This document shows, in pieces, positions 9,929 to 51,206 of a stretch of DNA of 64,000 nucleotides (positions are counted from its first letter, which is position 1; every line of letters starts with the position of its first letter). The notes beneath the pieces are model-generated. The model had not been told where the DNA came from. It searched no databases and was given only the letters and a program-made list of their open reading frames with translations. Position numbers and translations under genes: made by a program. Source of the DNA: a virus (taxonomy: Duplodnaviria; Caudoviricetes). Location: IMG/VR virus record IMGVR_UViG_3300021255_004000, positions 160,001 through 224,000 of that record. One strand, written 5' to 3'.

Positions 9929-10342
9929 TCACTCATTTTTGTCCTCCACAATAAGGTTACCCTCATCGTCATATAACATTATTTGTTTAACCCGCACAAA
10001 AGCTGTGGGTTCTATTTTTGAAAGGAACTCGAAAATGCATTCGGGTACCCAACAAGTGTTCCATTCTTTACTTTTCAACTGTCTTATAACAGCCAAAGTT
10101 TTGTTAACTTTTCTTGGGTCAAGTTTATCATAGTCAACTCGAACAGTTTCTCCATTTGGAGAAAGTTCTTTTGACACAAGAATATCAATTATTCCTAAAG
10201 AAACAAGACGATAGTCTCTTAAGTCAATACTTGTCTGTCCAAAGTTTTTATTTATGTGAATTATTTTTTCCATCAACCATTTGAAGATTTGGACAACCTG
10301 CAAAGCAATTTGGATTTCTGTCAAGTAAAACAGCAGCAACAT
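9929..10342 (-). CDS. Hypothetical protein, PxxFxG-module family (divergent)
   Basis: TCWVPECIFEFLSKIEPTAFVRVKQI. Confidence 0.5.
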   Translation of the reverse strand: MLLLFYLTEIQIALQVVQIFKWLMEKIIHINKNFGQTSIDLRDYRLVSLGIIDILVSKELSPNGETVRVDYDKLDPRKVNKTLAVIRQLKSKEWNTCWVPECIFEFLSKIEPTAFVRVKQIMLYDDEGNLIVEDKNE

Positions 10343-10688
10343 CTTCTGTCACAATAATTGTTTCATATTGAAAAACCTCAAGTCGCTTTATGATTGACTC
10401 TGTTTCGTCTTCATAGCCTCCGTCATCAAATATTCCACAAGGACCGTCAGGATCATTTTCATTTTCAGGTACAATGTAATAACTCGAAAGATCCATAATC
10501 TTTTTCTTCGGTCTTACAATTTCATCAGCCATTTGGATAGTGCCTCCATTATATTTAGCAATAGCATCAATAACTGCACACTTTAGCATATCTAAAGACA
10601 TACCGCTTAAGGCCATTGATTGTAATGAGGCATATACATTAGGTGGCAATTTTGTTGCAAGATCTTTTAATTCATCCCAGTCGTTCAT
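10248..10688 (-). CDS. Hypothetical protein, PxxFxG-module family
   Basis: TIIVTEDVAAVLLDRNPNCFAGCPNL. Confidence 0.65.
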   Translation of the reverse strand: MNDWDELKDLATKLPPNVYASLQSMALSGMSLDMLKCAVIDAIAKYNGGTIQMADEIVRPKKKIMDLSSYYIVPENENDPDGPCGIFDDGGYEDETESIIKRLEVFQYETIIVTEDVAAVLLDRNPNCFAGCPNLQMVDGKNNSHK

Positions 10689-10707
10689 TGCCTACCTCAA
10701 TTTGATA

Positions 10708-11145
10708 TTAACTGTTAGGCACGCCTGTATGTAAATAAAGTAACAATGTCCGTGCCAAAACACCTGCTACTCTTTCTGACATTGAAAACTCATCGTCAGT
10801 CTTTCCGCGTTTTTGTCTAGGGAAAGAAGCAACCTGATAAAGTTGAACATAAACACAGTTATCAAGTTTGCTGAATGAAAGTATTTCACAGTGTGAAATG
10901 CATTCAACATACAAATGAGGCAAACTTTTTACATCTGCCTTAACTGCTTCAAGCAACCACTGAGTAATCTTTTCAATCGAATCTCTTGAAAGAATGATCT
11001 GATTGAAGAATTCTTTGTTCTTTACTTTATCCTTGACGATTGCAACACTATAAGTTTGGTAAGGCACATCACAATAAAATTGCAATGAATAGCCATCACT
11101 TGAAACTCTTGCTGCCAAGTCAAGCGGCTCAACTTTCTCTTTCAT
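10708..11145 (-). CDS. Hypothetical protein
   Basis: 145 aa, tightly packed with neighbours. Confidence 0.6.
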   Translation of the reverse strand: MKEKVEPLDLAARVSSDGYSLQFYCDVPYQTYSVAIVKDKVKNKEFFNQIILSRDSIEKITQWLLEAVKADVKSLPHLYVECISHCEILSFSKLDNCVYVQLYQVASFPRQKRGKTDDEFSMSERVAGVLARTLLLYLHTGVPNS

Positions 11146-11148
11146 ATT

Positions 11149-11727
11149 TTAACCCATTTTTGTATCTTCATTCCACCCACAGATTTCAGCATTGATATAT
11201 CGACCATTTTCAAGCAATAAGTCTGAACGAATAGTCATATCACCAATAACAATATCAAGCAGGTCACAATCTTTACGAGGCCTTACCCCAGTAATCTGGT
11301 ATGTACCATCACCCCAAACAACAAGATTGCCCACTGCTGGGCGATGTAACTTGTCGTAGGGTTTATATTTTGGTAAGCCCACAAAACGATCCGCGCCTTC
11401 AGGTTTTTGAGTTTGTTCATCATTGTCTTCAGCATTTTTTGCCTCCGTTAGTTTAGTTATATGCTCTTTGTAAGCAAAAAGAAGTTTACTTTTGTTTACT
11501 CCTGAGTAAAATCTTATTGTTTCTTCATCTTCATCAAACTCAATATAAATGCCATCATAACCTTGAAAGATAGTTTCACCTGTTCTGATATTGTCAAAAT
11601 TGACAAAACCTTGGTATTTATCTGTGTCTGATGCTTGAAGATTTGGGTACCCGATAACTGTTGCAAACTCAGCAAAAACATCTTCATTGTGCTCGAAGTC
11701 ATCGAAAGTAAAAATCATATTAAGCAT
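11149..11727 (-). CDS. Hypothetical protein
   Basis: 192 aa, GAGG RBS. Confidence 0.6.
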   Translation of the reverse strand: MLNMIFTFDDFEHNEDVFAEFATVIGYPNLQASDTDKYQGFVNFDNIRTGETIFQGYDGIYIEFDEDEETIRFYSGVNKSKLLFAYKEHITKLTEAKNAEDNDEQTQKPEGADRFVGLPKYKPYDKLHRPAVGNLVVWGDGTYQITGVRPRKDCDLLDIVIGDMTIRSDLLLENGRYINAEICGWNEDTKMG

Positions 11728-11993
11728 TATTCACCCTCTTTATAAAAGAGAACAAAGCCTGTACTGTTTGCAACAATCTGAACAACAGTAACGCCTTCAC
11801 CGTTCACAAAATCACAAAGCTCTTCTCTTGTACGAAAGTAACTACTTTTCAGTTGCAGCATTCATTCCTCCAAGGTCATATCCATATTTTTCAGCGAGTT
11901 GTTCAATTTCTTTGAAGGTTTTTCCATTCAAAGGGTTGTTCTTTTTACCTCGCCAAAAGTTGATTGTTTTCATAAGCAATGCTTCATTCATAT

Positions 11994-12560
11994 TTACACC
12001 TCTTCTTCACGGACAACGAAAACATCTTTTGTTATTCCATCGCCTCTTGTGTACTCGCGGACTTCGATAATGTCTTTTTCAAAATCACCATCATAAAAGT
12101 AAACTGATGGGCGTTCGCGTGTAAGAGACCAATGAAATATAATATCCCAAATGTCTCTTGCAGACAAATACTCATAAGTATGATGATGATCTTTATCATC
12201 ACGATAGTATCTTGCGTAATCAACAGTGATTGGCTTTTCAAGCTTGTAAACTTTTTCATCATAGTTGGCAAATGCGATTCTTTTGAAATCTTCAAAAGTC
12301 ATTTTCTTTGCATATTCATAAGATGCTTTTTCAAGTTCGAGCCAGTCATAACCTGATGAGCGTTCCAAATCTTGAATGTCTTTCTTAATCAAGTTGAAGT
12401 AATCTTCAAGAGAAATGAAATCAGAAAGTTCATACTCATAAAAAGTTTCTTCAAACTCTTTAACTTCAAAAGGACGCTTAAGCAGGATTTCGTGGTTGAC
12501 AAAACGCTGCCACATTGTAAGAGGAATGATAAATCTAACTTTACTTTTAAGTGAACTCAT
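11994..12560 (-). CDS. Hypothetical protein
   Basis: 188 aa, GGAGG RBS, GTTAATAT at 12579-12586. Confidence 0.65.
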   Translation of the reverse strand: MSSLKSKVRFIIPLTMWQRFVNHEILLKRPFEVKEFEETFYEYELSDFISLEDYFNLIKKDIQDLERSSGYDWLELEKASYEYAKKMTFEDFKRIAFANYDEKVYKLEKPITVDYARYYRDDKDHHHTYEYLSARDIWDIIFHWSLTRERPSVYFYDGDFEKDIIEVREYTRGDGITKDVFVVREEEV

Positions 12561-12586
12561 TTTGCAACCTCCAAAATTATATTAAC

Positions 12587-13525: not shown

Positions 13526-13988
13526 CAGCTGCCTCCATATATTCTACTATTGATTTAGCAAGTAATTTGCATTCTTCATCAGTAAGTAATTTACTTACAT
13601 CAGGCTTTTCTTTTACACTTGGAAGTCCACAAAGTTTGTTGATGTCAACGAGTATCTTACAGTAACGCTTGCCATCAATTTCAACGCCTGTGTTGCAACA
13701 GTCTTCTCTGCTTTCGTGACAAGGACAGTTGTTGTTTTCACAAGGCTGCAAAATTGTAACATAGCCAGTGTCATTAAGGTTTTCACCATCACAAGTTGCC
13801 TTTTTATCTGATGCAACTTTTGCAACAAGATCCCAGAACATTGCGTCCTCAACAAGTTTTGTTACTTCTTCAATAGAAATGTAGCCTGTCTTAGGATGCT
13901 TAAAATGATACCACTTTACACCATAGTATGCGATGGTACCCACAACAAAAATAATAAAAGCAAGATAAACAATTAACATCAAGTTCAT
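13515..13988 (-). CDS. Hypothetical membrane-anchored Cys-rich protein
   Basis: N-terminal TM helix, multiple Cys. Confidence 0.6.
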   Translation of the reverse strand: MNLMLIVYLAFIIFVVGTIAYYGVKWYHFKHPKTGYISIEEVTKLVEDAMFWDLVAKVASDKKATCDGENLNDTGYVTILQPCENNNCPCHESREDCCNTGVEIDGKRYCKILVDINKLCGLPSVKEKPDVSKLLTDEECKLLAKSIVEYMEAADEK

Positions 13989-19662: not shown

Positions 19663-20364
19663 TCATATTCTCCTCAATAGTTCATCAATCTCATCGTTTC
19701 TTTCTGCGTCTCGAACAGCAGCACCTTCATTTTGACGAATTTCTTCTGTTCGATTTCTGATACGCTGAATGTACTCTTCGTTCGTTTCATCTTTGTAACC
19801 GTCAAGATTTTTAGGCAATTCAGTTAAACCTACATCAGCAGTTTCATCGGTTACAACAACTTCCCAGCCATCAAAAATTGTTGGGTCCTGTTCTGAACAA
19901 AAGTCAAGAACAAATGATGAAAGATAAACAGTTCTCTTTACACCGTTTTTCAGTTCATTAAGAACATCAGTTGTAACATCAACCATTTCCATAGGTCCGT
20001 CAGCGTGATATTTATTTATGAACAACCGATTATTTGCTGTATCAACTTCAACATCAGTCAAACGGTAAACTGCTTTCTTTGCATATTCTTTCTTTGTCTT
20101 CTGAAGATCTTTTCGGATCTCTTCAAGGATCTTATTGTTCTCTTCGTCAAACTCGTACTGCTCTTCACCAATGATTTCACCTTTATTGTAATATGTTACA
20201 ACAGCGCCTGTGAATTCACTAGCAAGATAGTTAAAACCGTTGTCGGTCCAACTGTTATAGCCCAAGTTTAAGCGTCGATGACGAAGAGTTGAGCAGTCTG
20301 TTGTGTCGCCATAATAAAGATCAGCTGTGTATGCGCTTCCTAAAGAATTATTCAATACTGTCAT
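19663..20364 (-). CDS. Hypothetical protein, PxxFxG-module family
   Basis: TVYLSSFVLDFCSEQDPTIFDGWEVVV. Confidence 0.65.
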   Translation of the reverse strand: MTVLNNSLGSAYTADLYYGDTTDCSTLRHRRLNLGYNSWTDNGFNYLASEFTGAVVTYYNKGEIIGEEQYEFDEENNKILEEIRKDLQKTKKEYAKKAVYRLTDVEVDTANNRLFINKYHADGPMEMVDVTTDVLNELKNGVKRTVYLSSFVLDFCSEQDPTIFDGWEVVVTDETADVGLTELPKNLDGYKDETNEEYIQRIRNRTEEIRQNEGAAVRDAERNDEIDELLRRI

Positions 20365-20690
20365 TATGACTCCTCAAAGTAATCATCATCATCTTCATCA
20401 ATCAAGTCGAGATCAATTCCCTGGAAAATGTTTGGATTTTGCTCGAGAAGATATTCCGCATTCGTTTCGGTGATTTTCAATTTACCACCTTCAACATATT
20501 TGCGCATAAACTCAACATCTTTTAATTTGACAGGACACTTCTTTGTATCATATTTAGGAGCATCATCTTCTTTGTTTTCAGTATCTGTCAGAATGTCGGA
20601 CAAATTGAGCCCAGGCATTGAACCTGTGGCCTGTGTAAGAGCTGTCACACTTTGTATCATTTTCAAAAACTCGGAATTACTCTGTCCCAT
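20364..20690 (-). CDS. Hypothetical protein, PxxFxG-module family
   Basis: KLKITETNAEYLLEQNPNIFQGIDLDL. Confidence 0.65.
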   Translation of the reverse strand: MGQSNSEFLKMIQSVTALTQATGSMPGLNLSDILTDTENKEDDAPKYDTKKCPVKLKDVEFMRKYVEGGKLKITETNAEYLLEQNPNIFQGIDLDLIDEDDDDYFEES

Positions 20691-21087
20691 CTTCGTCCTC
20701 CTTCAAAGGTTCTCCTATATTGATATTAACTCCATCAAAAATTGTTGGGTCAACTCTTATCAATTCCTCAACGACTTTATGATGCATACAAACACTGTTG
20801 CCTGTTTCTTTATTGTAAAAGCCGCTTATCACTCTTCTTATTGTTCCTGAAGTCATATAAATAACTCTTGCAGGAAGCTTAAGTTTCTTAATGTCATTTT
20901 CAAATCTTTTATGTTGTTCTTTTGTTAGAACAACTCTTTCGCAAGTACCAATGTCAGTATAGCGAATCATTTCTTCTGCACTTTTATGAAGCTGTTTGAG
21001 CCATTCATCTCGTAAGTTTCTGTCATTCAATGTACAACTCCTTTCCATCAAACAACTCAGGATTCTTATCAAGAAAATATTCCGCAA
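20677..21087 (-). CDS. Hypothetical protein, PxxFxG-module family
   Basis: SVCMHHKVVEELIRVDPTIFDGVNINI. Confidence 0.6.
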   Translation of the reverse strand: MRNIFLIRILSCLMERSCTLNDRNLRDEWLKQLHKSAEEMIRYTDIGTCERVVLTKEQHKRFENDIKKLKLPARVIYMTSGTIRRVISGFYNKETGNSVCMHHKVVEELIRVDPTIFDGVNINIGEPLKEDEDGTE

Positions 21088-21343
21088 CTGCTGAGTTCAA
21101 TGAAATCATCGTACTCTTTTTAATTGCTTCAATAACATATTGTGTCAAAGTCATTTGAGCAGTTGTTGTGTCAATCATCAAGTCTGGATTTCCGTCAAGA
21201 AACACAAACCCAGTGAGATCAAGATCGCCTTTTGCTGAAACACAACTTGTCAAATCTGCTGTGAAGTTTGGAGTACCCCAAGAATCTCCTGGGTGATATC
21301 CAAACTGTTGTGTGCCATTCGGACAAAACTTATTCATCAGCAA
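21023..21343 (-). CDS. Hypothetical protein, PxxFxG-module family
   Basis: MISLNSAVAEYFLDKNPELFDGKELYI. Confidence 0.65.
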   Translation of the reverse strand: MLMNKFCPNGTQQFGYHPGDSWGTPNFTADLTSCVSAKGDLDLTGFVFLDGNPDLMIDTTTAQMTLTQYVIEAIKKSTMISLNSAVAEYFLDKNPELFDGKELYIE

Positions 21344-22394
21344 GTCCTTCGATATGAGGAATGATTTCGCCGCGCTTTACAATCTTTACTTTTGAACCGA
21401 TTTCAATTCCGTGCTTAATCAACCAATTTGCGTTTGAGCAAGATGCTCTCTTAACAGTTGTTCCACAAAGATCAACCGCTTCAACGATTGCAACTGGGTT
21501 GAAGTATTTTCCTGATTGAGACCATTCAATGTCAAGAACAGTTGTTATTGCAACATCAAGTTCAAACTTGATAGCGCAAGAGTTCTTAGGAGTTCTGTTC
21601 TTGAGGTCTTCATAGTCGATAACTTCAGGCTTTACAACCACTCCGTCAATATCATATTCAATGTTTTCACGATTGTTGTACTGAGAAGTACGGAAGGCGA
21701 AAGCTTCTGTCAAGTTCTTTACAACAGCGTGTTCTGGGATTTCAAATCCATTTCCTGAAAGGAATTCCAATTTCTGAACTTCAGTTTTGATTGTCTTTTC
21801 ACCAACTTCCTGCATATCATAAGCAACAAAGTTGAGATTGTCAAGTTCTGAACCGTCAAGATGTTTCATAATTCCTGCAGCAGCATTGCGGCAGTTCTTC
21901 ATCTTGTCTTTGTAGTTTTTGTTGAACATTGAGTGAGACATCAGGATTTCGCCGCGAATTGAACAATCCATTGGCAAGTTCAAAGTTGAATTAACACCTT
22001 TAACAAGCTTTGCATTTTCAGTGATATCATCACCTTCAAAGCCTGTGCCGCGTGTAACTGCCTGAACAAGTTTTCCGTTGCGGAACTTAAGTTCAATTCC
22101 TGCACCGTCCATCTTCTGTTCCATAACATACACACCAGGGTGTTTGCGGAACCATTCTTTGAAAGCAGATTCATCTTTACACTTTGCAAGTGTTCCTGTT
22201 ATCAAATCGTGTTTTGCTTTTGCAAAACCTTCAGTGTGATCGTCATAAGTTACTGTATCAACATAAGTTGGATCAAGAGTTTTCAGTTCATTGACAAGTT
22301 GGTCAAACTCCTTGTCTGACATAATAGGCTCAGCATTGCCGTATGCGATTGATGCTTCTTCGATCTTTGCTTTCAATTCATCAATTCTTGTCAT
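21330..22394 (-). CDS. ligA: NAD-dependent DNA ligase, N-terminal half (domain Ia, adenylation domain, OB fold)
   Basis: MSDKEFDQL, EQKMDG (KxDG), TRGTG..GDDIT, RGEI, RNAAAG, IDGVVVK, RGEIIP; stops right after the OB domain. Confidence 0.9.
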   Translation of the reverse strand: MTRIDELKAKIEEASIAYGNAEPIMSDKEFDQLVNELKTLDPTYVDTVTYDDHTEGFAKAKHDLITGTLAKCKDESAFKEWFRKHPGVYVMEQKMDGAGIELKFRNGKLVQAVTRGTGFEGDDITENAKLVKGVNSTLNLPMDCSIRGEILMSHSMFNKNYKDKMKNCRNAAAGIMKHLDGSELDNLNFVAYDMQEVGEKTIKTEVQKLEFLSGNGFEIPEHAVVKNLTEAFAFRTSQYNNRENIEYDIDGVVVKPEVIDYEDLKNRTPKNSCAIKFELDVAITTVLDIEWSQSGKYFNPVAIVEAVDLCGTTVKRASCSNANWLIKHGIEIGSKVKIVKRGEIIPHIEGLADE

Positions 22395-23999: not shown

Positions 24000-24491
24000 T
24001 TATTCCCAAGTATTTTTAATTATTTGTACATTTATTCCGTTGAAAAACTCAGGACTGAACTCGATAATTGCCTCAGCTATTGCAGGAAAAACATAAACGG
24101 GAAACTCTCCATAAGATGGAGCAGGAACTGCATCACGAATGCATTTTACCCAAATCAATGTAAAATAAAAGTTTTTGATCTCAGGCGGCATTGGGTATCT
24201 ATCATAATTCTTGATAAAAAACTCTACTGCTTTATCGTAAGCTTTTGAAAAGCCTTTTCTGGAAGCTATTGAAAGTTTATCAACATATGTAATTACGGGT
24301 GATATTGACTGCATTGAAAAGTCGATATAAAAATATCTTTTTACTGCAATGAACACTTGACGATACTTATCTGGGTCATCATCAAAGTCATAGTTTGCTG
24401 CCCAACTTGTCAAAAGACTTCTTGCATACATTGGGTCAAACTTTTTTGTAACTTCAGCCCATTTATTAAGGCTTTCCACCGACTTTGTCAT
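24000..24491 (-). CDS. Hypothetical protein, PxxFxG-module family
   Basis: PVYVFPAIAEAIIEFSPEFFNGINVQI. Confidence 0.65.
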   Translation of the reverse strand: MTKSVESLNKWAEVTKKFDPMYARSLLTSWAANYDFDDDPDKYRQVFIAVKRYFYIDFSMQSISPVITYVDKLSIASRKGFSKAYDKAVEFFIKNYDRYPMPPEIKNFYFTLIWVKCIRDAVPAPSYGEFPVYVFPAIAEAIIEFSPEFFNGINVQIIKNTWE

Positions 24492-25332: not shown

Positions 25333-26058
25333 TTACCACCCCAATTTCTTGTTTGGATCTTTTGCTCGAACAATAACGCAGTTTGCTGGAGAGAGCCCAA
25401 AGTTGATAGTTGAAGGAGTCATCTTCGCAACTTTTACAATAACAACACTTGCGCCTGCTCCACTTGCAACAGTATCACCAATCTCAATGGGAATGCCAAA
25501 CTTATCAGTAAGAGGATGCTTTTTAAGGTACTCATCTTTGTCATTTACTTTAGTTAAAGCAGAGTTAACTTTCATAAATCTTTCAAAACCAAGTACATTT
25601 GCAATGTGTTCTCTTAATGCTACGATAGGCGGATGATTTTCCCAACCAGTGAAATCTTTTTCTTTGTCATCTGCAAAAGACGCTATTTTCAAGTTGAACC
25701 TAACAAGCTTACAAGGCTTATAATTATTTGGATAGTGTCTTTTAACATATTCTTCATTGTCAGTGTAATCTGGCTCACAAGTAGAATAGTAACCGTAGCT
25801 AAAGCCATCAACAATTTTATAAGAGATGTTAAAAAATGTTCTACCAAAGTTGATGTCATTGACACCTTTAACAACATCTTTTGAAATTATTTGGAGTTTC
25901 TTGAAAGCATTGATGCAGCCTTCGGTTGTATCATCACAAGGAAACAAATGATAGAACTTGAAGTAACGAACTCTTTCGCCATCAACTTTTTCACTAAGGA
26001 AATTATCCCAGTCAAGTTCAACATATTCAAGCAGACACTGTTTCTCGATGTATTCCAT
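25333..26058 (-). CDS. Hypothetical protein with a C-terminal DxxGxPIEIGD domain (paralog of 44496-45233)
   Basis: DKFGIPIEIGDTV...PNKKLGW. Confidence 0.65.
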   Translation of the reverse strand: MEYIEKQCLLEYVELDWDNFLSEKVDGERVRYFKFYHLFPCDDTTEGCINAFKKLQIISKDVVKGVNDINFGRTFFNISYKIVDGFSYGYYSTCEPDYTDNEEYVKRHYPNNYKPCKLVRFNLKIASFADDKEKDFTGWENHPPIVALREHIANVLGFERFMKVNSALTKVNDKDEYLKKHPLTDKFGIPIEIGDTVASGAGASVVIVKVAKMTPSTINFGLSPANCVIVRAKDPNKKLGW

Positions 26059-37024: not shown

Positions 37025-37690
37025 TTACTTAGGCTGTTTCGGAATGGCCTCGCAATACTCCAAAGCATCAACTGGGGTTATTGCCATCTTTTGCAGTGCA
37101 GCGATACCCATCGCGTGACTTGATAAATCCCAATAATGGTTAAGTACACGGTCAACAAATACTCTGCAATCTTCATTTTCATCAAGGTTCTGTTTGTTTC
37201 TGTTCTGAAATCTTTCCAGCAAGTCAGGCACTTTGACGCAAAAGATTGACATATGATTATTGAAGTAAGCAGGGTTTGGGTTGAAGGTACCAAGAAGTCC
37301 GACTCTTTCTTTGTACGGTCCGAGGTCAATCCCTGTCTCCTCTTCAAACTCGCGAATGGCGGCGTTCTTTCTAACCTCTTTAAGAGCGTCGTCATAACCT
37401 TCAAGCGGAAGATCTTTCATTTCAGAGTCTTCCACTGTACCGCAAGGGAACTCAATAGTTTTTGCTTCTGCACCCCAGCGTGTCTGTTCAACAAAAACGC
37501 AAACAGGATTTTCTCTTGAACTTGCGTCTGCAGCTATCAACATACACCAGTCGTTACAATTCAAACCAACAGGCTTGAAGTTTGGAACATTGTCAAACTC
37601 CTTCTCTACAACGGTAAAGACGGGTGTTTTCATTTTTGTAGTTTCTTTAGTCTTTTTTAGCATTTTTCGCATTCTCCAAAATTGTACCAA
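37025..37690 (-). CDS. Nudix hydrolase, ADP-ribose pyrophosphatase-like
   Basis: VEQTR..IEFPCG..E, AAIREFEEETG (Nudix box with an insertion), PNPA, LDENE as in ADPRases. Confidence 0.8.
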   Translation of the reverse strand: MVQFWRMRKMLKKTKETTKMKTPVFTVVEKEFDNVPNFKPVGLNCNDWCMLIAADASSRENPVCVFVEQTRWGAEAKTIEFPCGTVEDSEMKDLPLEGYDDALKEVRKNAAIREFEEETGIDLGPYKERVGLLGTFNPNPAYFNNHMSIFCVKVPDLLERFQNRNKQNLDENEDCRVFVDRVLNHYWDLSSHAMGIAALQKMAITPVDALEYCEAIPKQPK

Positions 37691-38150
37691 GCAGTTTTAC
37701 ATCGTCAATCTTTTTGAGGTCTTTTCCAACATCCTCAGTTGCAAGTAAACGAGCGCTTTCATATTTCTTATTGTACTTATAAGCTTCTATGTAATCTTGA
37801 ACTGTTGGATATTCAAGAGCTTCATACTTTGTAATCATTTCTTGATTGTTTTTGATAAAGCTTTTTGCATCAAATACCATAGTTGCAAAAGCCAATGCAA
37901 ATATAAAACCAAACAAGCAAACAATGCATCTTATTGTGAAAAATGTCCAATACCAGAGATGCTGCCACCATTCATCTGCATAGCCCATTACTAATGCATC
38001 ACGCAACTTTCGAATGATTCCATCAGATTTTGTTTTATCTGACCAATAAACTCTTTCAAAAATGAAAGCAATCAAATGATGGATTCCAATCAACGCCAGA
38101 CCAGGGATAATCAGGAAACAAAAAACCCCGATAATCAAACTTGTATTCAT
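37647..38150 (-). CDS. Hypothetical membrane protein (2 TM)
   Basis: Two hydrophobic segments. Confidence 0.6.
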   Translation of the reverse strand: MNTSLIIGVFCFLIIPGLALIGIHHLIAFIFERVYWSDKTKSDGIIRKLRDALVMGYADEWWQHLWYWTFFTIRCIVCLFGFIFALAFATMVFDAKSFIKNNQEMITKYEALEYPTVQDYIEAYKYNKKYESARLLATEDVGKDLKKIDDVKLLGTILENAKNAKKD

Positions 38151-38161
38151 TTAGCCACCTC

Positions 38162-38719
38162 TTAAAGTTTGTTGTACCAGTCCGCGTCGTCCAAGTACAT
38201 TTCCATCAATTCAGATATTAACTTGTTGCGAACTTTTGAAGAACTTGCTTCCAAGAAATCTTTTCCAATGTACAATTCCTCGCAAGGAACAACTTTTACA
38301 AGGTCATCTTTGCTGTTTCCGCGCTGGACAACCATCAGAGTTGCCATAAGGAGAATGTCTTCATAGCGGAACCAAGTTGGAAAGTTTTTGTAGGAGTCTT
38401 CGCCGATGATAAGATATAATTCATCATTAGGATACTGTTCTTTGAAGTACTGAACTGTGTTGATTGTACGCCACTTGCTGTCTTTATCTTTTTCAAGGCT
38501 GTCAATTACAATGTTTCCAGGCGCATTTGAAATCATCTTTGTAATGATTGCAACCTTTTCATCGAAAGTAAACAACTTTCTTGAGTCAGGTCGATAGTAA
38601 TCACAAATCGTTGGTACGATGATTACCTTGTCAAGTTTCTTTGCAGCTTCAACTGCGATTTTCAAATGTCCCTGGTGGAACGGGTCAAATGTACCACCAA
38701 AAATTCCAATCTTTGCCAT
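38162..38719 (-). CDS. nadD: Nicotinate-nucleotide adenylyltransferase
   Basis: GIFGGTFDPFHQGH, LIIGEDS, FPTW, ASSSKVR. Confidence 0.9.
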   Translation of the reverse strand: MAKIGIFGGTFDPFHQGHLKIAVEAAKKLDKVIIVPTICDYYRPDSRKLFTFDEKVAIITKMISNAPGNIVIDSLEKDKDSKWRTINTVQYFKEQYPNDELYLIIGEDSYKNFPTWFRYEDILLMATLMVVQRGNSKDDLVKVVPCEELYIGKDFLEASSSKVRNKLISELMEMYLDDADWYNKL

Positions 38720-38932
38720 TTACTTTGCTCCTTTTGGATATCTGAACAACCAATCAGCACCGCCATCCATAAAGATTGACATTGTGTCGATTTCAAATCC
38801 TCGTTTCTTTATTTCGTTGTATTCTTCTTCAGTCAAACGACCACGGTAAGAACCGTAGGCAGGATAATGTTCAACTGCATAAACCAACGCTTTTGTCAAT
38901 TCATCTCGAAGTTTCATTATCCTGCCTCCGAC

Positions 38933-40240
38933 TTATTTCTCGTAAGTCATACGCCAGTCAATTTCCTTGTGCAGTCTTTCGATTGCTTCAGGATTGCGGC
39001 ACATATTCTTTCCAGGTGCATCAGAAAGTTTTGCAACATCCAAGCCGTTTACGATTGCAACCTTGCATACGATATTCAAAGCTTCAATTCCCTGAGGACC
39101 TGACCAATCAGTTCCGATACCGAATGCAACCTTTGCCTTGCCTTTGAAGTACTTATTGATTTCAGTTGCCTTCTGAAGATTGAGACCGTCACTGAACATC
39201 AGAGTTTTTGTAAGAGGGTCAATTCCCAAGCTCTTGTAATGGGCAATCATTTTGTCACCCCAAGCGTAAGGATCTCCAGAGTCGTGGCGTACACCGCTGA
39301 ACAAAGTTGCAAATGTTTTGCGGAAGTCCTTCAAGAAAACATCTGTTCCGATTGTGTCAGTTAAGGCGATACCGTTCATTGTTCCGTATTCTTTAACCCA
39401 AGCATCAAGTGCGAACCAGTTGCTGTAAGCAGGGTTGTGGTAGAGGTGTCCCTGGCCGACTGTCATAATGAACTCGTGAGCCATTGTACCAACGGCGGTA
39501 ACACCGTACTTCATTGCAAGATACATATTTGATGTACCGATGAAGCCCTGGATAGGTCCGATTGCATTGTGCTTTTTCTCTTCGACAAGGCGGCCAATCA
39601 ACCAATCCTGAAGTTCAAAAGAAACGCGGCGGCGGGCACCAAACTCTGAGAAGATGCCAGGTGCAAAAATGCCTTCGCGCATAAAGCGGAGCTTTTCTTC
39701 AGTCTTTTCTTTGAATTCTTTTGCAAGCTTTTCGTAATCATAGTGATTGCGGTAGTATGTTTCTGCGGCGATTTCGAGAACAGGAATTTCGTAATCTGAG
39801 ATTTTCCACTGAACACCTTTTGTGTGAATTGCGAGTCCTGAGATAGGATCATCACCGATTTCAAAGTCTTCAAAATGAGGCTTCCAATCGCGTTCAACTT
39901 CAATAAAGTTGTTGTGAATCCAAGGACGGGTTGCAGGATCTCCAAGGAAAGCGAGTTCCTCTTCTGTGTAACGAAGTGCGCAGTAAGCGCGGATCTGATT
40001 TGTAATTTCTTCACGGTCAGCAGCAGTGTACTTTTCGTGAGATGCAGCATCCCCGACATTGCGAGCCTTGAAGTCCCAAGTTGCGTGATCACCACTGAAC
40101 TGATGCAAGTAAGCCTGTTTCATTGACTTCTTGTACTGATCTGTATCAAGCGGTGACTTGACCATAGGCGGATATTTCAAATTAAACGCCTTCATAACAA
40201 CTGACTCATCGTCAGTCAACTTACCATTGATTTCCCACAT
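38933..40240 (-). CDS. pncB: Nicotinate phosphoribosyltransferase
   Basis: LDTDQYK, SEFGARRR, GTSN, GTMAHE, ALTDT, GVRHDSGDP, FSDGL, FGIGT, KLSD..GK. Confidence 0.92.
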   Translation of the reverse strand: MWEINGKLTDDESVVMKAFNLKYPPMVKSPLDTDQYKKSMKQAYLHQFSGDHATWDFKARNVGDAASHEKYTAADREEITNQIRAYCALRYTEEELAFLGDPATRPWIHNNFIEVERDWKPHFEDFEIGDDPISGLAIHTKGVQWKISDYEIPVLEIAAETYYRNHYDYEKLAKEFKEKTEEKLRFMREGIFAPGIFSEFGARRRVSFELQDWLIGRLVEEKKHNAIGPIQGFIGTSNMYLAMKYGVTAVGTMAHEFIMTVGQGHLYHNPAYSNWFALDAWVKEYGTMNGIALTDTIGTDVFLKDFRKTFATLFSGVRHDSGDPYAWGDKMIAHYKSLGIDPLTKTLMFSDGLNLQKATEINKYFKGKAKVAFGIGTDWSGPQGIEALNIVCKVAIVNGLDVAKLSDAPGKNMCRNPEAIERLHKEIDWRMTYEK

Positions 40241-43646: not shown

Positions 43647-44403
43647 TAAAAATCTGCAACTTCTTCAATTTCCCAAGTATTATCATCAATGTCAATTCTT
43701 ATAATAAAATGCAACTTGTCAGTTGACATTTCATCTGTCAAATTATAATCATATACATAAGGTCGGCTGTCCCAATCAAGAAGGTACATACCTACACTGT
43801 AATCGTGAACATTTTCATCAGAGTTTTTATGGAAACGAGTAACGATTCGCCAGCATTTATCGCCAACTTTCCATTCATTTACGCCTCTGTAATTTATTAC
43901 ATCAAAATGTGTCTCAAGATCACTGAATGAAATGTTTGCTCCAAGATAATTGTTGATTGCGGAAAAGATTGCTGACTCATCTACGGAACGCCATAAAGTG
44001 TTTGAAGGTATTTCGCCTTTCATTCAAAAAATCTCCAAGTGTCGTCATCATAAAGAACAATCAAAACATCACTTCTGTCAATAACACCTTCATTCTTAAG
44101 TCTTGTTTCCAATATGTCAGGAGCGTTTTCAGACTTATAAAGATTGAAGAAAGCGTGAAACCTGTTATCGGTTCCACCAAGTGACGTGACAACTATAACC
44201 CAAACAAAGTTTTCATCTTCACTCCAAAGTCGAAAAAGATAGCAACCGTTGTTGAAGAAGTTGGAAGCATTCTTTCCAAGTTCAATGGACTTACCAAGAT
44301 AGTCACTAATTGCTGCTATCATAAGATTATACATTTTACTAGTCAAAGATGGACACCTCCTTTCCATCAAAGTATGTTGGGTCAATGTCGAGAACTTTTT
44401 CAA
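43643..44403 (-). other. Tandem paralogous hypothetical genes (43643-44023, 44020-44403)
   Basis: Shared AI..YLG..I and DD.TW motifs. Confidence 0.55.
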
Positions 44404-44495
44404 ACCACTCTTTGAAGCCTTTGTAAGATGGATTGTGGAAGTTGGTTCTCATCCAACATTTGATTCTTAATGTCAGACGTTCTTCGTCAGTCATA

Positions 44496-45233
44496 TTACA
44501 GTCCCCAAGTCAGTTTCTTATTCGGATTGTTTGTACGAATTACAATAAGCTTTCTAGGTGACTTGTTGTTTACAGTTTCAGGCTCGATTGATGTTACAAC
44601 AAAAGGAACCATCCAAGTTTGATTCTGATACATTACAACATCTCCAATCTCAATAGGAACATTGTAACGATCTTTGTGAACGACAGCAGCAATCTTCTTT
44701 TTATAAACATCTTCAGTCATCTTGATGTAGGCAGCAGATGTTTTGAAGTCATAGATGTCATAATTAAGATTCAGCAACTGATTGAAAACCAAACGAGCAA
44801 CTTCATTGCTTTCCACATCGACATATGTGTAGTCATCTTCACTGAATGAGATCCACTTCATTGTAATTTTATCAACAGTGATGAAGTCATCTTCAGAGAT
44901 TGTAAATCTTCTTCCGCTCCAACTGTTATAAGAGTACTTCCCAGGCTCGCTATAATCTTCATAGAAGTCTTTCTTAGGAATGTAATCATTTCCTGATTTG
45001 TAAACTTTTACGCTGCTTTTTGAAAATGTGTACAAAATTGGCTTTTCATAATTTTCATCATACTTGCCGCCAAGGTCAATATCCAACTGATCTGGGCAAC
45101 TTGGTAAGGCAAGATTTTCTCCAATGACTGAAGTTGTCCAGTACCTTACTTTGTCGCCGTTTGCTTTTTCCTGAGCAACACTAGTAAATGCTTTTGGGTC
45201 AATATAAACTGCCTGTCTTATCATTTTTACCAC
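44496..45233 (-). CDS. Hypothetical protein (paralog of the 25333-26058 C-terminal domain)
   Basis: DRYNVPIEIGDVV...PNKKLTW. Confidence 0.65.
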   Translation of the reverse strand: MVKMIRQAVYIDPKAFTSVAQEKANGDKVRYWTTSVIGENLALPSCPDQLDIDLGGKYDENYEKPILYTFSKSSVKVYKSGNDYIPKKDFYEDYSEPGKYSYNSWSGRRFTISEDDFITVDKITMKWISFSEDDYTYVDVESNEVARLVFNQLLNLNYDIYDFKTSAAYIKMTEDVYKKKIAAVVHKDRYNVPIEIGDVVMYQNQTWMVPFVVTSIEPETVNNKSPRKLIVIRTNNPNKKLTWGL

Positions 45234-45922: not shown

Positions 45923-46750
45923 TTAAGCCTCCATCATTTTGTAAAACTCTTCATATGTAATTGTTGCAATTCCGAGTTTCTCAGCCTTAACCATTTTTGC
46001 TGTTCCTGTTTCTGATGATACGAGGTATGAAAGTCCTTTCTTTACGCTTTCAACAGTTCCGCCAAGTTCAGCAACTTTTTCCTCGAGAAGTTTTCTTTTC
46101 TCTTCAGGCTTGAAGTCGTTTGAACCTGTGAAGCAGAATGAAAGCCCAGAAAACTTTCCACCTTCAACAACTTTTGCTTTATCTTCGATTGAAACAAGTT
46201 TGTAGCATTTTTCAATGTCTTCTTTGTTTTCAGCAATAAGGCTGACAAGTTCTTTTGCAGAGTTTTCAGTCCAGCCGTAAACATTTGCAATTTCAGGAAC
46301 AATGTTTAAGCCGTTTACAAGTTTCTGAAGATCAAAGCCTGCATCAACCAAAGACTGAATTGATCTTCGTCCATAACCATCAAGGTCAAATGATGCAAGG
46401 AAGTCAGCAGTTTTGAAAGGCTCTGCCATACGCTTTGCAAAGTTGCGGCGAATCTTTTCTGCATTTTTACCGCAAACATTGTCCAAAGAAGGACTGTTCA
46501 ATTTTGTAAGGAATTCATAGTTTGATGTGATGTTTTCTGCTTCGACAAAATCCTTAATGATAGCAGGTCCGATCTCAAGGACATTCCAAATGTTTGTCAA
46601 TTTTTGGATTTTGTGAAGTACTTTCTGTTCACAGGTAGGATTCGGGCAAAAAAGAACACCCGATTCATTTATTTCGAGAGCTGTCCCGCATACAGGACAG
46701 ATTGTAGGCATATTCCATTTATGTGATTTTGCGTATTCTGCGGCGTTCAT
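45923..46750 (-). CDS. ligA: NAD-dependent DNA ligase, C-terminal half (Zn finger, HhH, BRCT)
   Basis: PTICPVCG...LFCPNPTC Zn finger; EIGP, GYGR, GWTE HhH-like turns; GLSFCFTG..GG.V..SV..LSYLV...K..KAEKLGI BRCT. Confidence 0.88.
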   Translation of the reverse strand: MNAAEYAKSHKWNMPTICPVCGTALEINESGVLFCPNPTCEQKVLHKIQKLTNIWNVLEIGPAIIKDFVEAENITSNYEFLTKLNSPSLDNVCGKNAEKIRRNFAKRMAEPFKTADFLASFDLDGYGRRSIQSLVDAGFDLQKLVNGLNIVPEIANVYGWTENSAKELVSLIAENKEDIEKCYKLVSIEDKAKVVEGGKFSGLSFCFTGSNDFKPEEKRKLLEEKVAELGGTVESVKKGLSYLVSSETGTAKMVKAEKLGIATITYEEFYKMMEA

Positions 46751-46816: not shown

Positions 46817-48619
46817 TTATGCTACTTTGAAATAATTACAAATTGCATCATTTACACTAGAAATAAGCGCAAGGTCTTCTGGTGTTGTTTGTGACTTGTC
46901 TGAAACAAAACATTTATATTTCAAGCATTTTGTAACGAAGAGAGTGAACATCATTCTCTTTTTAAGGCCTTTGTCCAAACCATTTTTGAATGCAGAAATA
47001 AGTCTTATTACACAGTTGAAAGTATAATCAGCGCCTGGGCCATTAACATAATCGAGATATTCCTTAGTCAACTGATTGTATTCATCAAAAACTTTAATTA
47101 AGTTTCCACCACCAACAACACCTTCTGTCAAAGCTTCCAAGGCAGACATTGCTTCACCACATTTTCCACCGAAGCCTTTATCACCAATTTCAAGTTCAAG
47201 TTGTCCATCACCTTTTGTACCATCTGCTTTAATTGAACTCATTGATACCTTAAGACGAATACCTGGGATGCCATCAATCTTTGGCAAGTTGTCTTTATTG
47301 ATTTGCAAATCGTGATAGCCTGCTTCAGTCAATGTAAAGAATGGACGAACTCTTGAATATGAAACATTTCCGTCTTTCTCTTTTCCAGGGAGAGCCTTTA
47401 CAATATAAAGATCATCAATAGTTGTTTTATCTGAGAACTCTCCAGCGTAAACGCCAGCGACGTGACTTGTGTATTGAGAGAGTTTGTCATAAATCTTGAG
47501 TTCTGAGAATTTCACGTGTGCAGGACCTTTAGGAACTTTTTTCAATGAGATCGGCAAAATCCAACCCATAATTGTACAGATGTTCATATTGTAAATCAAA
47601 GACTGCTTTCTTTTTGAAAGTTGGTCTTCAGCAACATTGTCATCATCTGAAAGTAACTGCATTCTCAACATCTTAACTCTTTGTTTTCTTGTACCTGCTT
47701 TACCTTTAATAGCAGTAAAGTGATCATCATCTTTCAAGAAGTTGTCATACTCTGTTGTCTTAAATGAACCAGCACGGTTGTAAATCTTTTCGAGTTTTGA
47801 CTCATCATTTTCAGCATAAGCAGCAGCAGGAACTTCACCATATCTTAAAGCTTTATAAAGTTCGTCTTCGTGCTCACTGTCAACTAAGAAAATATCTGCA
47901 GGTTGAACATTGTCTTTGTTGCTCAAACCATAAGAACGATCATCAAACAAAAATCTGAAGTCGTGTTTTCCAAGTGGCTTCAAAAACTCGTGAACAGGAA
48001 TCCAATGTACATCTTTTGTTGCAGCTCTTGTATGCATCATACATTCTTTAATGATTGTATAATTTGAACAAGCAAGAATTGAGTTGTTCCACTCTTTGTT
48101 ATATACAACAGCATCAATAGTTGCTTGTGCAATAGGTACTGTTTTTGAAAGACCTTGATTATCAAAGTAATCAAGAAAGCCCTTAGTGCTTTTTGCTTTA
48201 ATACTTACATAAATATCTTCTTTACAGCAAGCAAGAGCAGTAAGTCCTTCCTGAACAGCTGTTATGCTGTTTGCCTCAAGGCCTGAGGCTTTGTCAGCTT
48301 TACAAAATCCTTTCCAAACGCCCCATTCATTCTTTTCACCAATATCAACGCCAATGCTCTTAAGTAATTCACCAAGTTTATCAACTGCTTCAGGTGAAAC
48401 AATGGTAGGGAGATTTTCTACTTCATCAACAATAGAACTTGCATCAATAATAACAGGTTCTGCGTCATCGCCATCTCTTGTATCAACATATCCTTTTTCA
48501 ATTATGTTGTTTCTTAAAGTCACATAGTAAGCGCCTGAATGCTTAGTCAGCAACTCGCTTCTTTTAACGTGTTGCTCTTCAATCTTTATAAGATTTTCAA
48601 AAAATAATTCCATTCCCAT
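46817..48619 (-). CDS. Hypothetical 600-aa protein, possible PD-(D/E)xK-like fold, probably late
   Basis: QE, PADIFL and ISLKK motifs; ACTAATT at 48625-48631. Confidence 0.5.
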   Translation of the reverse strand: MGMELFFENLIKIEEQHVKRSELLTKHSGAYYVTLRNNIIEKGYVDTRDGDDAEPVIIDASSIVDEVENLPTIVSPEAVDKLGELLKSIGVDIGEKNEWGVWKGFCKADKASGLEANSITAVQEGLTALACCKEDIYVSIKAKSTKGFLDYFDNQGLSKTVPIAQATIDAVVYNKEWNNSILACSNYTIIKECMMHTRAATKDVHWIPVHEFLKPLGKHDFRFLFDDRSYGLSNKDNVQPADIFLVDSEHEDELYKALRYGEVPAAAYAENDESKLEKIYNRAGSFKTTEYDNFLKDDDHFTAIKGKAGTRKQRVKMLRMQLLSDDDNVAEDQLSKRKQSLIYNMNICTIMGWILPISLKKVPKGPAHVKFSELKIYDKLSQYTSHVAGVYAGEFSDKTTIDDLYIVKALPGKEKDGNVSYSRVRPFFTLTEAGYHDLQINKDNLPKIDGIPGIRLKVSMSSIKADGTKGDGQLELEIGDKGFGGKCGEAMSALEALTEGVVGGGNLIKVFDEYNQLTKEYLDYVNGPGADYTFNCVIRLISAFKNGLDKGLKKRMMFTLFVTKCLKYKCFVSDKSQTTPEDLALISSVNDAICNYFKVA

Positions 48620-48634
48620 AATGTAATTAGTAAA

Positions 48635-48660
48635 AAAGGACAGGTTTTTGCCTGTCCTTT
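48635..48660 (-). terminator. Terminator after the AAA ATPase, followed by ACTAATT
   Basis: AAAGGACAGG..CCTGTCCTTT with T-tract on the minus strand. Confidence 0.75.
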
Positions 48661-48694
48661 ATAACTTTTATATTCCTTTATAACTTTTTATAAC

Positions 48695-49840
48695 TTAATA
48701 TGCACCGAAGTCAATGTGCTTTGAAACTGTCAAGCATTCAAGCTTGAGATTGTGTTTCTTACGGAATGTCTGATCTCCAGCAGAAATCCAAATGTCTCCG
48801 TCTTCATCCTTGAACTGTACCCAGTAAGGATCATTTACATCAACATCTGGGTAGAAGCCCTGCCATCTGTCAATCTGAATGTTACCTGTCGGAATAAGTG
48901 CAGGCTTGAGTGAAACTTCCCTAAACTTAAACTTAATGTAGCAGTAATCATTGAGCCAGCCTTTGCAAAGTCCTTTTGATGTGTTCCAAGTATCAGTTAC
49001 TGTGAACTGGTGTCCGTCAAGTGAGAATGTTGCAGCAATATCAATTTCCAACTTGCTTTCGCTGATGTTCATAATCTGAGCGATGTCTTCAACACTCATA
49101 GTTGGGAATGAGTTCATTTCTTTTACGATAGACTGAACGATGTCAAGCGACTGTACACGAGAACCACGCAAAACATCAACAACATCTTTAATGTCATCCC
49201 ATCTTGACTTAATCAAATTGTCTTTGCAGTACTCTTCGATTGCAGCTTCTGAAATGTTTTCATAGCGGAAATGATAGCGAATACGACCTGGGCGTGAAAT
49301 CAGATTTTCATTGAGAGAGAAAACATCGTTCACTGAAAGCAAGTACAAATTGTGTGAAAGTGATTTTGTACCGTCAAGCACTGAAAGCAATGATTCCTGT
49401 GGAGTCATACCTTCATCACCGTTCTTTTTGAACATCTTTTCAAATTCATCGAGAACAACAACACATTCTTTCAAGTCACTCAAAACATTAGGAAGCAAGT
49501 CTGTGTACTGATCTACAACGATGACAGGTCTTGTCTTAATGTAATGTTCAACAATAAGACGGATTGTCAATGATTTACCTAAACCTTTATTTCCAGAGAA
49601 TAAAGCTCCAACATTTTTGTCTTTTTCGATGTCGTAAGACTCCCAAACGTGCTTTGCAAAACTTTCTGCATCGCCGTAGATTTTACCGTGAGAAGTTTTG
49701 TAATCTTCCATCTTATAGAAGTAAGGCGCGTTGGTCATTGGACGGTAGCCGATGCCCCAAGCTCCAGCAGGAAGTTGGTCTACTGTTTTGAGAGCCTCAC
49801 CTTCAAAATAAGTTGCCTCATTGTTGGCTATGATGTACAT
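48695..49840 (-). CDS. AAA+ ATPase
   Basis: GNKGLGKS Walker A, VVLDEFEK Walker B, LLSVLDG, SRPGRI arginine finger. Confidence 0.85.
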   Translation of the reverse strand: MYIIANNEATYFEGEALKTVDQLPAGAWGIGYRPMTNAPYFYKMEDYKTSHGKIYGDAESFAKHVWESYDIEKDKNVGALFSGNKGLGKSLTIRLIVEHYIKTRPVIVVDQYTDLLPNVLSDLKECVVVLDEFEKMFKKNGDEGMTPQESLLSVLDGTKSLSHNLYLLSVNDVFSLNENLISRPGRIRYHFRYENISEAAIEEYCKDNLIKSRWDDIKDVVDVLRGSRVQSLDIVQSIVKEMNSFPTMSVEDIAQIMNISESKLEIDIAATFSLDGHQFTVTDTWNTSKGLCKGWLNDYCYIKFKFREVSLKPALIPTGNIQIDRWQGFYPDVDVNDPYWVQFKDEDGDIWISAGDQTFRKKHNLKLECLTVSKHIDFGAY

Positions 49841-49886
49841 TTATGTACCTCCAAAAAATATTTTAATCTTCTGTTATTATATTAAC

Positions 49887-50795
49887 TTAATTTGGCTTCC
49901 ACATAGGATTTTTATTTCTCATTCTTTGCTGTTGTTTGTAACTCATTTTTGTTTTAACAGGCTTTTGTTCTTCCTCATCTGCATCAAGCAATGACTGCAT
50001 TCTTGTCATAGCATCTTCATCACTCATATCCATTGTGATCATGCCTTTTGCTTTATTGCTTAACACTGGCTGAATATATGCGATTGCATCATTTACTGGT
50101 TCCATTGCAAACTCAGTAAACAGCTGAGGCCTATAAGGAATGCGGCTTTCACTGTCACCGTCTTTTATCTCTGGAATGTCTTCACCTTCAAAGAAATCAG
50201 GCCAAGCATCAAGAATTAAACTTATATCTTTTTCATTAAAATCTTCAACTTTAACATCTTGTTCTTTTAAGTAATCTTTAAACTCTTTTGCAGTACCACA
50301 CTTTTTAATAAAGTCTGAGAGTGAAATTGTGTTGAAAAGATCTGCTTTAATTAAAGAAATTGTAGAAATTCCACCGTGTGAAAATTGCCCATCATCTTCA
50401 TCAATCTTCTCATCAAAAAGCAGTCTGGCGTGTTCTTCATTTGCAGCCAATGCCTTCCTATAAGGCGTTACTTTTTTGCCGTTTAGATTTGTTCCCCACT
50501 TCTTTCCAAGTTCAACAGCTTTGTTCTGTGCTTCTTCTGCAGGAGTAAGTTTATACTTTTCAGCAAGTTCTTTTTTGATTTTGTCAAAGTCTGGAAAGTC
50601 AAACTGGATTGTCCAATCAGAGTGATCATCAGCTTCTGTAAGTTTACCACCAAGCAAACTTGCAACATCAGCAGAAACAACTTGTCGAGAAACGCCTCCT
50701 CGATCTATACTTTTTGACATATCTGGTATTTGTGACCAAGCGTCAAGAAAGTCTTTACTTCTTTTCACCACTATACTTTCATTGAATCTTTGCAT
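49887..50795 (-). CDS. Hypothetical protein, PxxFxG-module family
   Basis: EKDISLILDAWPDFFEGEDI. Confidence 0.6.
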   Translation of the reverse strand: MQRFNESIVVKRSKDFLDAWSQIPDMSKSIDRGGVSRQVVSADVASLLGGKLTEADDHSDWTIQFDFPDFDKIKKELAEKYKLTPAEEAQNKAVELGKKWGTNLNGKKVTPYRKALAANEEHARLLFDEKIDEDDGQFSHGGISTISLIKADLFNTISLSDFIKKCGTAKEFKDYLKEQDVKVEDFNEKDISLILDAWPDFFEGEDIPEIKDGDSESRIPYRPQLFTEFAMEPVNDAIAYIQPVLSNKAKGMITMDMSDEDAMTRMQSLLDADEEEQKPVKTKMSYKQQQRMRNKNPMWKPN

Positions 50796-50798
50796 TCG

Positions 50799-51206
50799 TT
50801 ACTCCATAAATTGTTCCATCTGTAAACCACCAGCCAAATATCCTGTAACTCTTTTTGGTAAACCTGTCGTCATAACTGGAATCATTGTACCATAAGTAAC
50901 AGATCCTTGTACATTAGTTTGAATTGCACCAGTTTTCTTTAATTCATATTTATAATACTCATCATAAGAGTCACAGTACTCAACTTCTTTATTTTCAAAA
51001 TATGTTGGCAGATAATCTATGATTTGTTCAGCATCTTCATAAGTAACAATAATTTTGCCATCTTTTGTCTGTCCCATAGTTGCATCAAGATATGCTTTCA
51101 AACTGTCTGTTGTGCCAAATGACATACTGCGAAACTTGATTGGGCCTGTGTTTCCAAATGAAGGAACAGGAGATGCTATTCTTCTTATACTTGACAATAT
51201 TCCCAT
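50799..51206 (-). CDS. Hypothetical protein, PxxFxG-module family
   Basis: KIIVTYEDAEQIIDYLPTYFENKEVEY. Confidence 0.6.
   Translation of the reverse strand: MGILSSIRRIASPVPSFGNTGPIKFRSMSFGTTDSLKAYLDATMGQTKDGKIIVTYEDAEQIIDYLPTYFENKEVEYCDSYDEYYKYELKKTGAIQTNVQGSVTYGTMIPVMTTGLPKRVTGYLAGGLQMEQFME

Follow-up and report, generated by a model that had tools for sequence, protein, structure and literature searches.

An uncatalogued domain of ~50 residues shared by small, mostly acidic proteins of ruminant-gut jumbo phages

Introduction

One precedent for the multiplication of a small domain within a single jumbo-phage lineage is Bacillus phage G, which carries ~35 zinc-ribbon copies as a lineage-specific expansion; in the published account the function of such expansions is described as unknown, and they are thought to serve regulation or conflict (PMC7824862). 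The present analysis concerns a 64,000-nucleotide stretch of DNA (the window) from an uncultured virus of the Caudoviricetes (IMG/VR record IMGVR_UViG_3300021255_004000, positions 160,001 to 224,000), in which an earlier note, made from the sequence alone, had pointed to a short module common to at least nine dissimilar proteins. Like the zinc ribbons of phage G, the module is a small domain multiplied in one jumbo-phage lineage; unlike them, it has another fold and no metal ligands, and its genes form a tandem array whose content varies between close relatives. Because small-domain expansions of jumbo phages have been described, it is the family that is new here and not the phenomenon (PMC7824862). 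The proteins that carry the domain are small and mostly acidic, and together they form a multigene family restricted to a lineage of ~290-kb jumbo phages from the ruminant gut.

Three other kinds of small module invite comparison. The capsid-targeting sequence of T4 internal proteins and the cargo-loading peptides of encapsulins are short, unfolded peptides, and the T4 signal is N-terminal and cleaved off. The likeness to the family in the window is one of concept, in that a common short module directs unrelated small proteins to one place, whereas the unit described here is predicted to be a folded domain of 50 residues that is mostly C-terminal, also occurs alone and belongs to acidic proteins. 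Ocr, Ugi, p56, AcrIIA4 and barstar represent a class of small acidic inhibitors, which the family resembles in being small, strongly acidic, alpha/beta in predicted composition and fast in gene turnover, and from which it differs in that a profile search of the PDB and fold searches with Foldseek, VIA-align and BFVD gave no significant match. Small size and acidity are thus features that the family has in common with phage inhibitors and DNA mimics, a resemblance of functional class and not of homology. The helicase-associated (HA) domain, PF03457, is a helical domain by its Pfam description and is said, in a nuclear magnetic resonance paper, to bind DNA.

A shared domain in dissimilar proteins

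All nine of the 21-residue strings quoted in the earlier note were found on the minus strand of the window, in the open reading frames (ORFs) to which they had been assigned; these genes, and the tenth described below, are named here by their lower coordinate and are all on the minus strand. For each string in turn, a profile was built from the other eight and run against the window in six-frame translation (1069 pieces, 71,072 residues). Seven of the nine left-out proteins ranked first or second among the non-training pieces: 20364 (E 1.9e-4), 21023 (E 2.5e-4), 10248 (E 7e-3), 19663 (E 0.058), 24000 (E 0.07), 20677 (E 0.12) and 50799 (E 0.53). The two that failed were 49887, at rank 23 with E 12, and 9929, at rank 96 with E 49. 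An ORF that had not been listed, 44339-44494, came first or second in all nine runs (E 1.5e-4 to 4.6e-3). When 23 domain copies were combined into a profile (A1) from which 9929 and 49887 were excluded, the eight training proteins in the window scored 52-67 bits, and the best piece outside the family reached 7.5 bits. The best match in 20 residue-shuffled databases was 8.6 bits, and none of the 20 reached 9.6 bits; similarly, the window's six-frame pieces contain 15 instances of the pattern P..F.G, whereas 200 shuffles gave 4.5 on average and never more than 10. The observation that dissimilar proteins share a module is confirmed, as are the proposed grouping of the genes into clusters of 2, 4, 1 and 2 and the unrelatedness of the N-terminal parts at the BLASTP level, where no two of the ten window proteins share a group.

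The module had been described as a strand-helix-PxxFxG-strand unit. It is real as a shared element, but the alignment reaches upstream of the original 21 residues, and the unit is ~50 residues long, with the order short strand, helix 1, strand 1, helix 2, PxxF[D/E]G turn and strand 2. What the nine strings capture is the most strongly conserved core of this uncatalogued domain, the fold of which is predicted. Among 80 distinct copies, the phenylalanine of the turn is present in 80/80, the proline in 76/80 and the glycine in 55/78, and the remaining conserved positions are mainly hydrophobic, with the spacing expected of a helix or strand. Charges are conserved as well: glutamate at profile position 33, aspartate or glutamate at 37 and 44, lysine or arginine at 18 and lysine at 24, such that the conserved E and D lie on helix 2 and the K/R on helix 1.

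Several features of the DNA raise the question of whether the signal is one of nucleotides, for example a promoter for the next gene embedded in gene ends, or a chance motif. Several copies end in ATT TTT GAT GG, which contains what we take to be a Bacteroides-type -7 box (TAnnTTTG), and the module often lies at a 3' end just upstream of the next gene. Other copies read TTC CAG GGA, TTC AAC GGA or TGC TTT GCA GGT, so that no nucleotide word is preserved, and in the codon alignment the proline (CCA/CCT/CCC), phenylalanine (TTT/TTC) and glycine (GGA/GGT/GGC) vary synonymously, as do other positions, which places the constraint at the level of the protein instead of a nucleotide word. In addition, profile matches lie far above the shuffled controls and are found again in related contigs, on the coding strand. 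A DNA signal or chance motif is therefore scarcely credible, being ruled out at the level of sequence by the synonymous codons, the relatives and the shuffles.

Two AlphaFold2 (AF2) models describe the predicted fold. The first, of a 60-residue piece of the 20364 protein based on 23 aligned copies, contains a helix at residues 8-17, a strand at 22-26, a helix at 27-36, the turn NPNIFQG and a strand at 45-49, with a mean predicted local distance difference test (pLDDT) score of 73.8. The second, of the whole 233-residue 19663 protein and based on its own homologues only, places helices at 131-140 and 150-159 and strands at 145-148 and 168-171 (pLDDT 75-84 over residues 100-170), and adds strands upstream of the module (residues 99-129), one of them directly before the first helix. 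The two models agree in register, with an offset of 123 residues for all four elements and for the proline and phenylalanine; the comparison of structures is one of secondary-structure register between these two models. The phenylalanine, together with the near-invariant proline and glycine, would build the turn from helix to strand, with its side chain, as judged by the sequence pattern, plugged into and buried in the hydrophobic core. If the residue occupies the core as proposed, the motif would have a structural role and would not be a binding peptide in its own right.

The 60-residue model was compared with three fold libraries and gave no significant match: Foldseek against the PDB and the search of BFVD each gave none at E <= 0.001, and the best of 48,161 chains in VIA-align had a Z of 4.3, with none at 5 or above. 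Barstar chains were among the weak Foldseek rows (E 1.4-3.9, probability 0.02-0.12). For the full 233-residue model, the rows listed by the fold searches match the C-terminal helix only (Z <= 4.9) or have root-mean-square deviations that are mostly ~15 Å, and in the ESM Atlas the 19663 and 20364 proteins gave scores of at most 0.77 or no usable match. A sequence search of the PDB with A1 had a best E of 0.25.

Two of the nine are weak members. The longest ORF of the 9929 gene (9929..10342) encodes 137 residues, of which residue 24 is probably the true start, and the module match is partial (9998-10099), with the turn PTAFVR and no glycine. This protein scores 15.2 bits (E 7.7e-4) with the A1 profile, built without it, and its full-length homologue P0048 (30% identity, E 2e-15) was found independently by A1 at E 1.8e-4 among 1.84 billion proteins, so that 9929 is counted as a divergent family member. 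The 302-residue 49887 protein (49887..50795) matches only from the second helix onwards, through the turn and the final strand (~50160-50225), at 10.8 bits (E 0.019) with the A1 profile, again built without it, and with a larger profile at 8.8 bits (E 0.072) against 8.3 bits for the best noise match. The segment ILDKWPDFFEG is kept in 120 examined homologues of 49887, and hhalign of A1 with the alignment of these homologues gives a probability of 73% (E 3e-5, 29 columns) versus 0.4% for a reversed control. The membership of 49887 is doubtful.

Members of the family in the window

The largest cluster is an array of four genes behind the gene for the N-terminal part of an NAD (nicotinamide adenine dinucleotide)-dependent DNA ligase (21330..22394, minus strand; phrog_3869, E 3.3e-86), which is directly upstream of the array and serves as a conserved landmark. 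The first of the four, 21023..21343, encodes 106 residues and carries the module (21026-21172) at its extreme C-terminus (A1, 51.9 bits). Next is 20677..21087 (module ~20698-20871; 57.9 bits), whose longest ORF has 136 residues and whose real start is probably a later ATG; P0027, a protein of 120 residues, shares its N-terminal BLASTP group. The 108-residue product of 20364..20690 has its module at ~20385-20549 (58.4 bits), followed by the acidic tail DEDDDDYFEES, and a tail DDDDYFEE is conserved at the end of proteins in this group. The last gene, 19663..20364, encodes 233 residues with a central module (~19837-20001; 67.1 bits), ~120 residues before it and a helical tail of ~56 residues after it, and has 265 homologues at E <= 0.001.

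Elsewhere in the window, 24000..24491 encodes 163 residues with the module at the C-terminus (24003-24182; 65.0 bits), and its N-terminal BLASTP group includes P0004, P0009, P0012 and one piece of the related contig L003. The 146-residue product of 10248..10688, which forms a cluster with 9929, has the module at ~10263-10403 (53.7 bits). A relative outside the window, P0008 (115 residues), joins an unrelated N-terminal stretch, presumably resembling a methyltransferase fragment, to a 10248-type module, which suggests a rearrangement or mis-assembly.

In the 135-residue product of 50799..51206 the module is near the N-terminus (~50958-51143; 57.6 bits), the turn ends in N instead of G, and a 52-residue tail contains a second motif, PKRVTGYL; P0010, P0023 and P0029 resemble this protein as judged by eye. 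The second motif, which lies ~32 residues past the module in the 50799 protein, recurs in the form P[KQ]R[VI][TI]GYL after the module of P0001, P0023 and P0029, and 50799 and P0001 share it despite belonging to different N-terminal groups.

The tenth gene, 44339..44494, is a new member identified by its rank in the leave-one-out runs. It is an ORF of 51 residues that is essentially the module alone, ends ...FKEWFEKVLDIDPTYFDGKEVSIFD (also given as ...VLDIDPTYFDGKEVSIFD) and fills the gap between two larger genes. P0006, also of 51 residues, is near-identical to its product and is a called gene in a three-member cluster.

Across the family, the domain is joined to unrelated short extensions that lie before it, after it or on both sides, or to none. 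A set of 82 family proteins falls into 42 N-terminal BLASTP groups, and the expected location near the C-terminus holds for most of them: at most 12 residues follow the domain in 61/82, and more than 40 follow in 18/82. Its position is otherwise variable, from central (19663) to near the N-terminus (50799), and a few proteins of 51-65 residues (P0006, P0014 and P0054) consist of the domain standing alone. The extensions are 0-123 residues long, except for 159 in the doubtful 49887, and since no scanned family member reaches a Pfam cut-off, none of the extensions contains a recognised domain. The proteins are also acidic, with a median isoelectric point (pI) of 4.57 and 76% below 5 among 50 family proteins, versus 5.81 and 23% below 5 among 93 other ORFs of the window, and the module itself has a median net charge of -5.

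Distribution and turnover of the family

A search of 1.84 billion representative proteins with A1 returned 55 matches at E <= 1e-3, six of them at E <= 1e-10. Fifty of the 55 are small proteins (51-232 residues) that appear, judged by sequence, to be relatives of the window members; three (P0020, P0042 and P0055) consist of HA repeats, and the other two (P0036 and P0051) look like chance hits. Among ten clusters that were looked up, none carries a name beyond 'hypothetical protein'. The suggestion that the family is undescribed agrees with the catalogues: no model of Pfam, PHROGs or PADLOC was matched by more than one of 40 family members (alignment A2), and catalogue scans of the nine window proteins gave only scattered sub-threshold matches. 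A Pfam scan of 43 matches from the family search reached curated cut-offs only in four outliers that are not of the family (HA in P0042 and P0055, Mug135_C in P0020 and three families in P0036). Literature searches on the HA domain and on small or paralogous protein families of jumbo phages listed no description of the family; the supplementary tables of gut jumbo-phage papers, which lie beyond this coverage, could list the genes as unannotated clusters. By these searches, the domain represents a new and narrow family that is uncatalogued.

Megablast of the window against deposited phages gave no match, and a search of 185,579 species genomes with the 19663 protein found no relative by a method that detects close relatives only. 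The ligase N-part gene is 76-77% identical in five viral contigs (L001-L005), each with a tblastn match of ~350-360 residues, and module genes lie behind it there too. A profile made from only eight window copies was compared with 3286 six-frame pieces of 17 loci and found 10 further pieces at E < 1e-3, all of which are in L001-L005 on the strand of the ligase and most of which sit directly behind it. These five records (23-61 kb) contain 4, 4, 5, 7 and 6 module matches, respectively, at E <= 0.01, or 26 in total. Homologues of 19663 and 49887 are found on contigs of 277-296 kb. In addition, contigs of three metatranscriptome libraries match the window at 90-95% over 20041-21398; such libraries can contain DNA, so the match does not establish transcription.

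Comparison with the syntenic L003 illustrates the pace of change. Module genes of the window are 52, 45, 44, 33 and 34% identical to their counterparts, and two of seven have none; among the neighbours, 24/32 have a counterpart (median identity 64.5%) and 8/32 are missing. The more distant L001, L002, L004 and L005 contain other paralogues at the same place. The family would have grown by tandem duplication behind the ligase N-part gene.

Relationship to the HA domain

The three HA-repeat proteins among the matches of A1 raise the possibility that the family is a divergent offshoot of the HA domain that acts on nucleic acid. Their whole-library E values are 1.2e-7 (P0020), 4.7e-5 (P0042) and 8.4e-4 (P0055), and the Pfam HA model is listed for all three (E 1e-5 to 1.6e-10), with P0042 and P0055 above the cut-off of 28.4 bits and P0020, at 26.2 bits, just below it. 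The similarity is local, comprising ~37 columns with a helix, a short linker, a helix and [DN]PxFF, and both units are short (50-65 residues) and can be repeated or appended. When A1 was compared by hhalign with 15 repeats of P0020, P0042 and P0055, the probability was 94% (E 8.7e-8) for a 37-column match that begins with helix 1 and ends with PxxF, a figure that is not independent because the repeats had been selected by A1 itself. P0055 also matches the PDB chain 2kta_A, a 'Putative helicase' (E 0.0044).

Several differences make this origin very unlikely. The match covers only part of each unit, none of the 40 family members in A2 matches the Pfam HA model at E <= 10, and none of the nine window proteins does so at E <= 1. 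The phage unit is acidic, and a median pI as low as that of the family is ill-suited to DNA binding, which makes such a role improbable without being a test of it. Strands are predicted by AF2 in a unit whose proposed ancestor is helical, and the rows shown by the PDB fold searches of the domain model (Foldseek and VIA-align) include no HA structure. Finally, HA repeats occur in tandem within one protein, whereas the phage unit is present as one copy per protein in many genes.

Possible functions of the domain

Our tentative, though preferred, interpretation is that the domain is a compact acidic protein-binding unit and that it provides the activity of the fast-evolving accessory proteins in which it occurs. 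These proteins would serve host takeover or counter-defence, the paralogues would be diversified versions for different or fast-changing targets, and the role of the domain would not be the passive one of attaching cargo to a single hub. Stand-alone copies have no cargo, an argument for an activity that resides in the module itself; this interpretation draws in addition on the shortness of the extensions and their lack of a recognisable domain, and on the differences in array gene content between close relatives.

A number of observations weigh against this interpretation. The fold is a prediction, with a mean pLDDT of 73.8 for the domain and 58 for the full 233-residue protein. Foldseek (PDB), VIA-align and BFVD gave no structural match to known small phage inhibitors. 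The acidic positions lie beside basic ones and may form internal salt bridges instead of a binding face, and a charged surface that is conserved would be just as compatible with one partner common to all. Several neighbours without a module also diverge fast (36-40% identity).

The possibility of a single common partner is close to what the earlier note had proposed, a docking, oligomerisation or targeting module that attaches variable cargo to a common partner. As a docking or targeting tag, the domain would bind one hub of phage or host origin and deliver short effector extensions to it; a factory for replication or transcription, the procapsid or a protease are examples of such a hub. A single conserved module joined to many unrelated extensions, charged positions that are conserved across paralogues and many copies per genome are all features that such a tag would have. 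This alternative is nevertheless rather unlikely, as the stand-alone copies of 51-65 residues carry no cargo, the extensions are short, no recognised domain is present in any of them, and no candidate hub has been identified. Nor does the domain have the character of a short, unfolded cargo peptide at a terminus, given its predicted fold of ~50 residues and its occurrence in C-terminal, central and near-N-terminal positions as well as alone; no link of the family to the capsid was found. In a bolder form, which we consider improbable, the domain would be an address label through which every member is brought to one and the same hub, either built by the phage or belonging to the host (for example a compartment for replication, the procapsid, or a machine for proteolysis or secretion). 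This would be a modular system of tag plus effector, in which the 51-residue copies would be competitors or regulators of the traffic.

The small size of the predicted fold suggests a different role, oligomerisation. A sheet of two or three strands with two helices could be too small to be stable alone, and it would then be completed by pairing with a second copy, supplied by the same paralogue or a different one. No more than two to three strands are predicted for the isolated domain, the upstream strands of the 233-residue member (residues 99-129) may complete the sheet in that protein, and many paralogues are encoded side by side; this proposal, which reasons from size alone and against which no result of the analysis speaks directly, also strikes us as improbable. 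A homodimer prediction for two copies of the 51-residue protein (A2) scored 0.02 against a mark of 0.42, a value that was obtained without controls and weighs neither way. Both a docking tag and an oligomerisation unit could overlap with the preferred interpretation of the domain as a protein-binding working part.

Other features of the window

The ligase whose N-terminal part marks the array is encoded in two genes on the same strand that are 23.5 kb apart, at 21330-22394 and 45923-46750 (both minus strand), which match positions 7-381 and 384-654, respectively, of phrog_3869 (length 656). Pieces of a DNA polymerase are also separate and in swapped order: of two plus-strand genes with matches to phrog_17 (length 1445), the upstream one (57409-58488) corresponds to positions 1059-1228 and the downstream one (59214-61229) to positions 541-1003. 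Between them lies an ORF of 243 residues (58481-59212, plus strand) that matches no PHROG at E <= 1e-5.

A different C-terminal module is common to two otherwise dissimilar proteins of ~240 residues (25333-26058 and 44496-45233, both minus strand), in which 57 residues with the pattern ..PIEIGD..NPNKKL.W are 39% identical (E 3e-11); the second of these genes is directly upstream of the 51-residue family gene. Directly downstream of a family gene is 51268-52098 (minus strand), which encodes 276 residues with an N-terminal stretch like a signal peptide (MKRFLSFLCVMFATCILLCAQEQ), a leader that we take to resemble that of a Bacteroidota-style secreted protein or lipoprotein. The window also contains an NAD salvage block (37025-40240, minus strand) that encodes a nudix hydrolase, a nicotinamide-nucleotide adenylyltransferase and a nicotinamide phosphoribosyltransferase. 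This block fits with the 'NAD-jumbo phages' described from animal guts (PMC11662467).

Significance

Jumbo phages of animal guts are abundant, and most of their small genes are unannotated. The family described here provides a handle on about ten such genes per 64 kb, in the form of a fold unit, a profile and a variable tandem array, and differences in the gene content of an array between close relatives are the usual mark of genes that engage the host. Even if the domain were merely structural, it would still be a new family and a candidate for inclusion in Pfam or PHROGs. If it serves instead as an address tag or as a scaffold for binding, a block of 'dark' genes would be explained at once, and the 51-residue copies would represent a very small, portable protein module.

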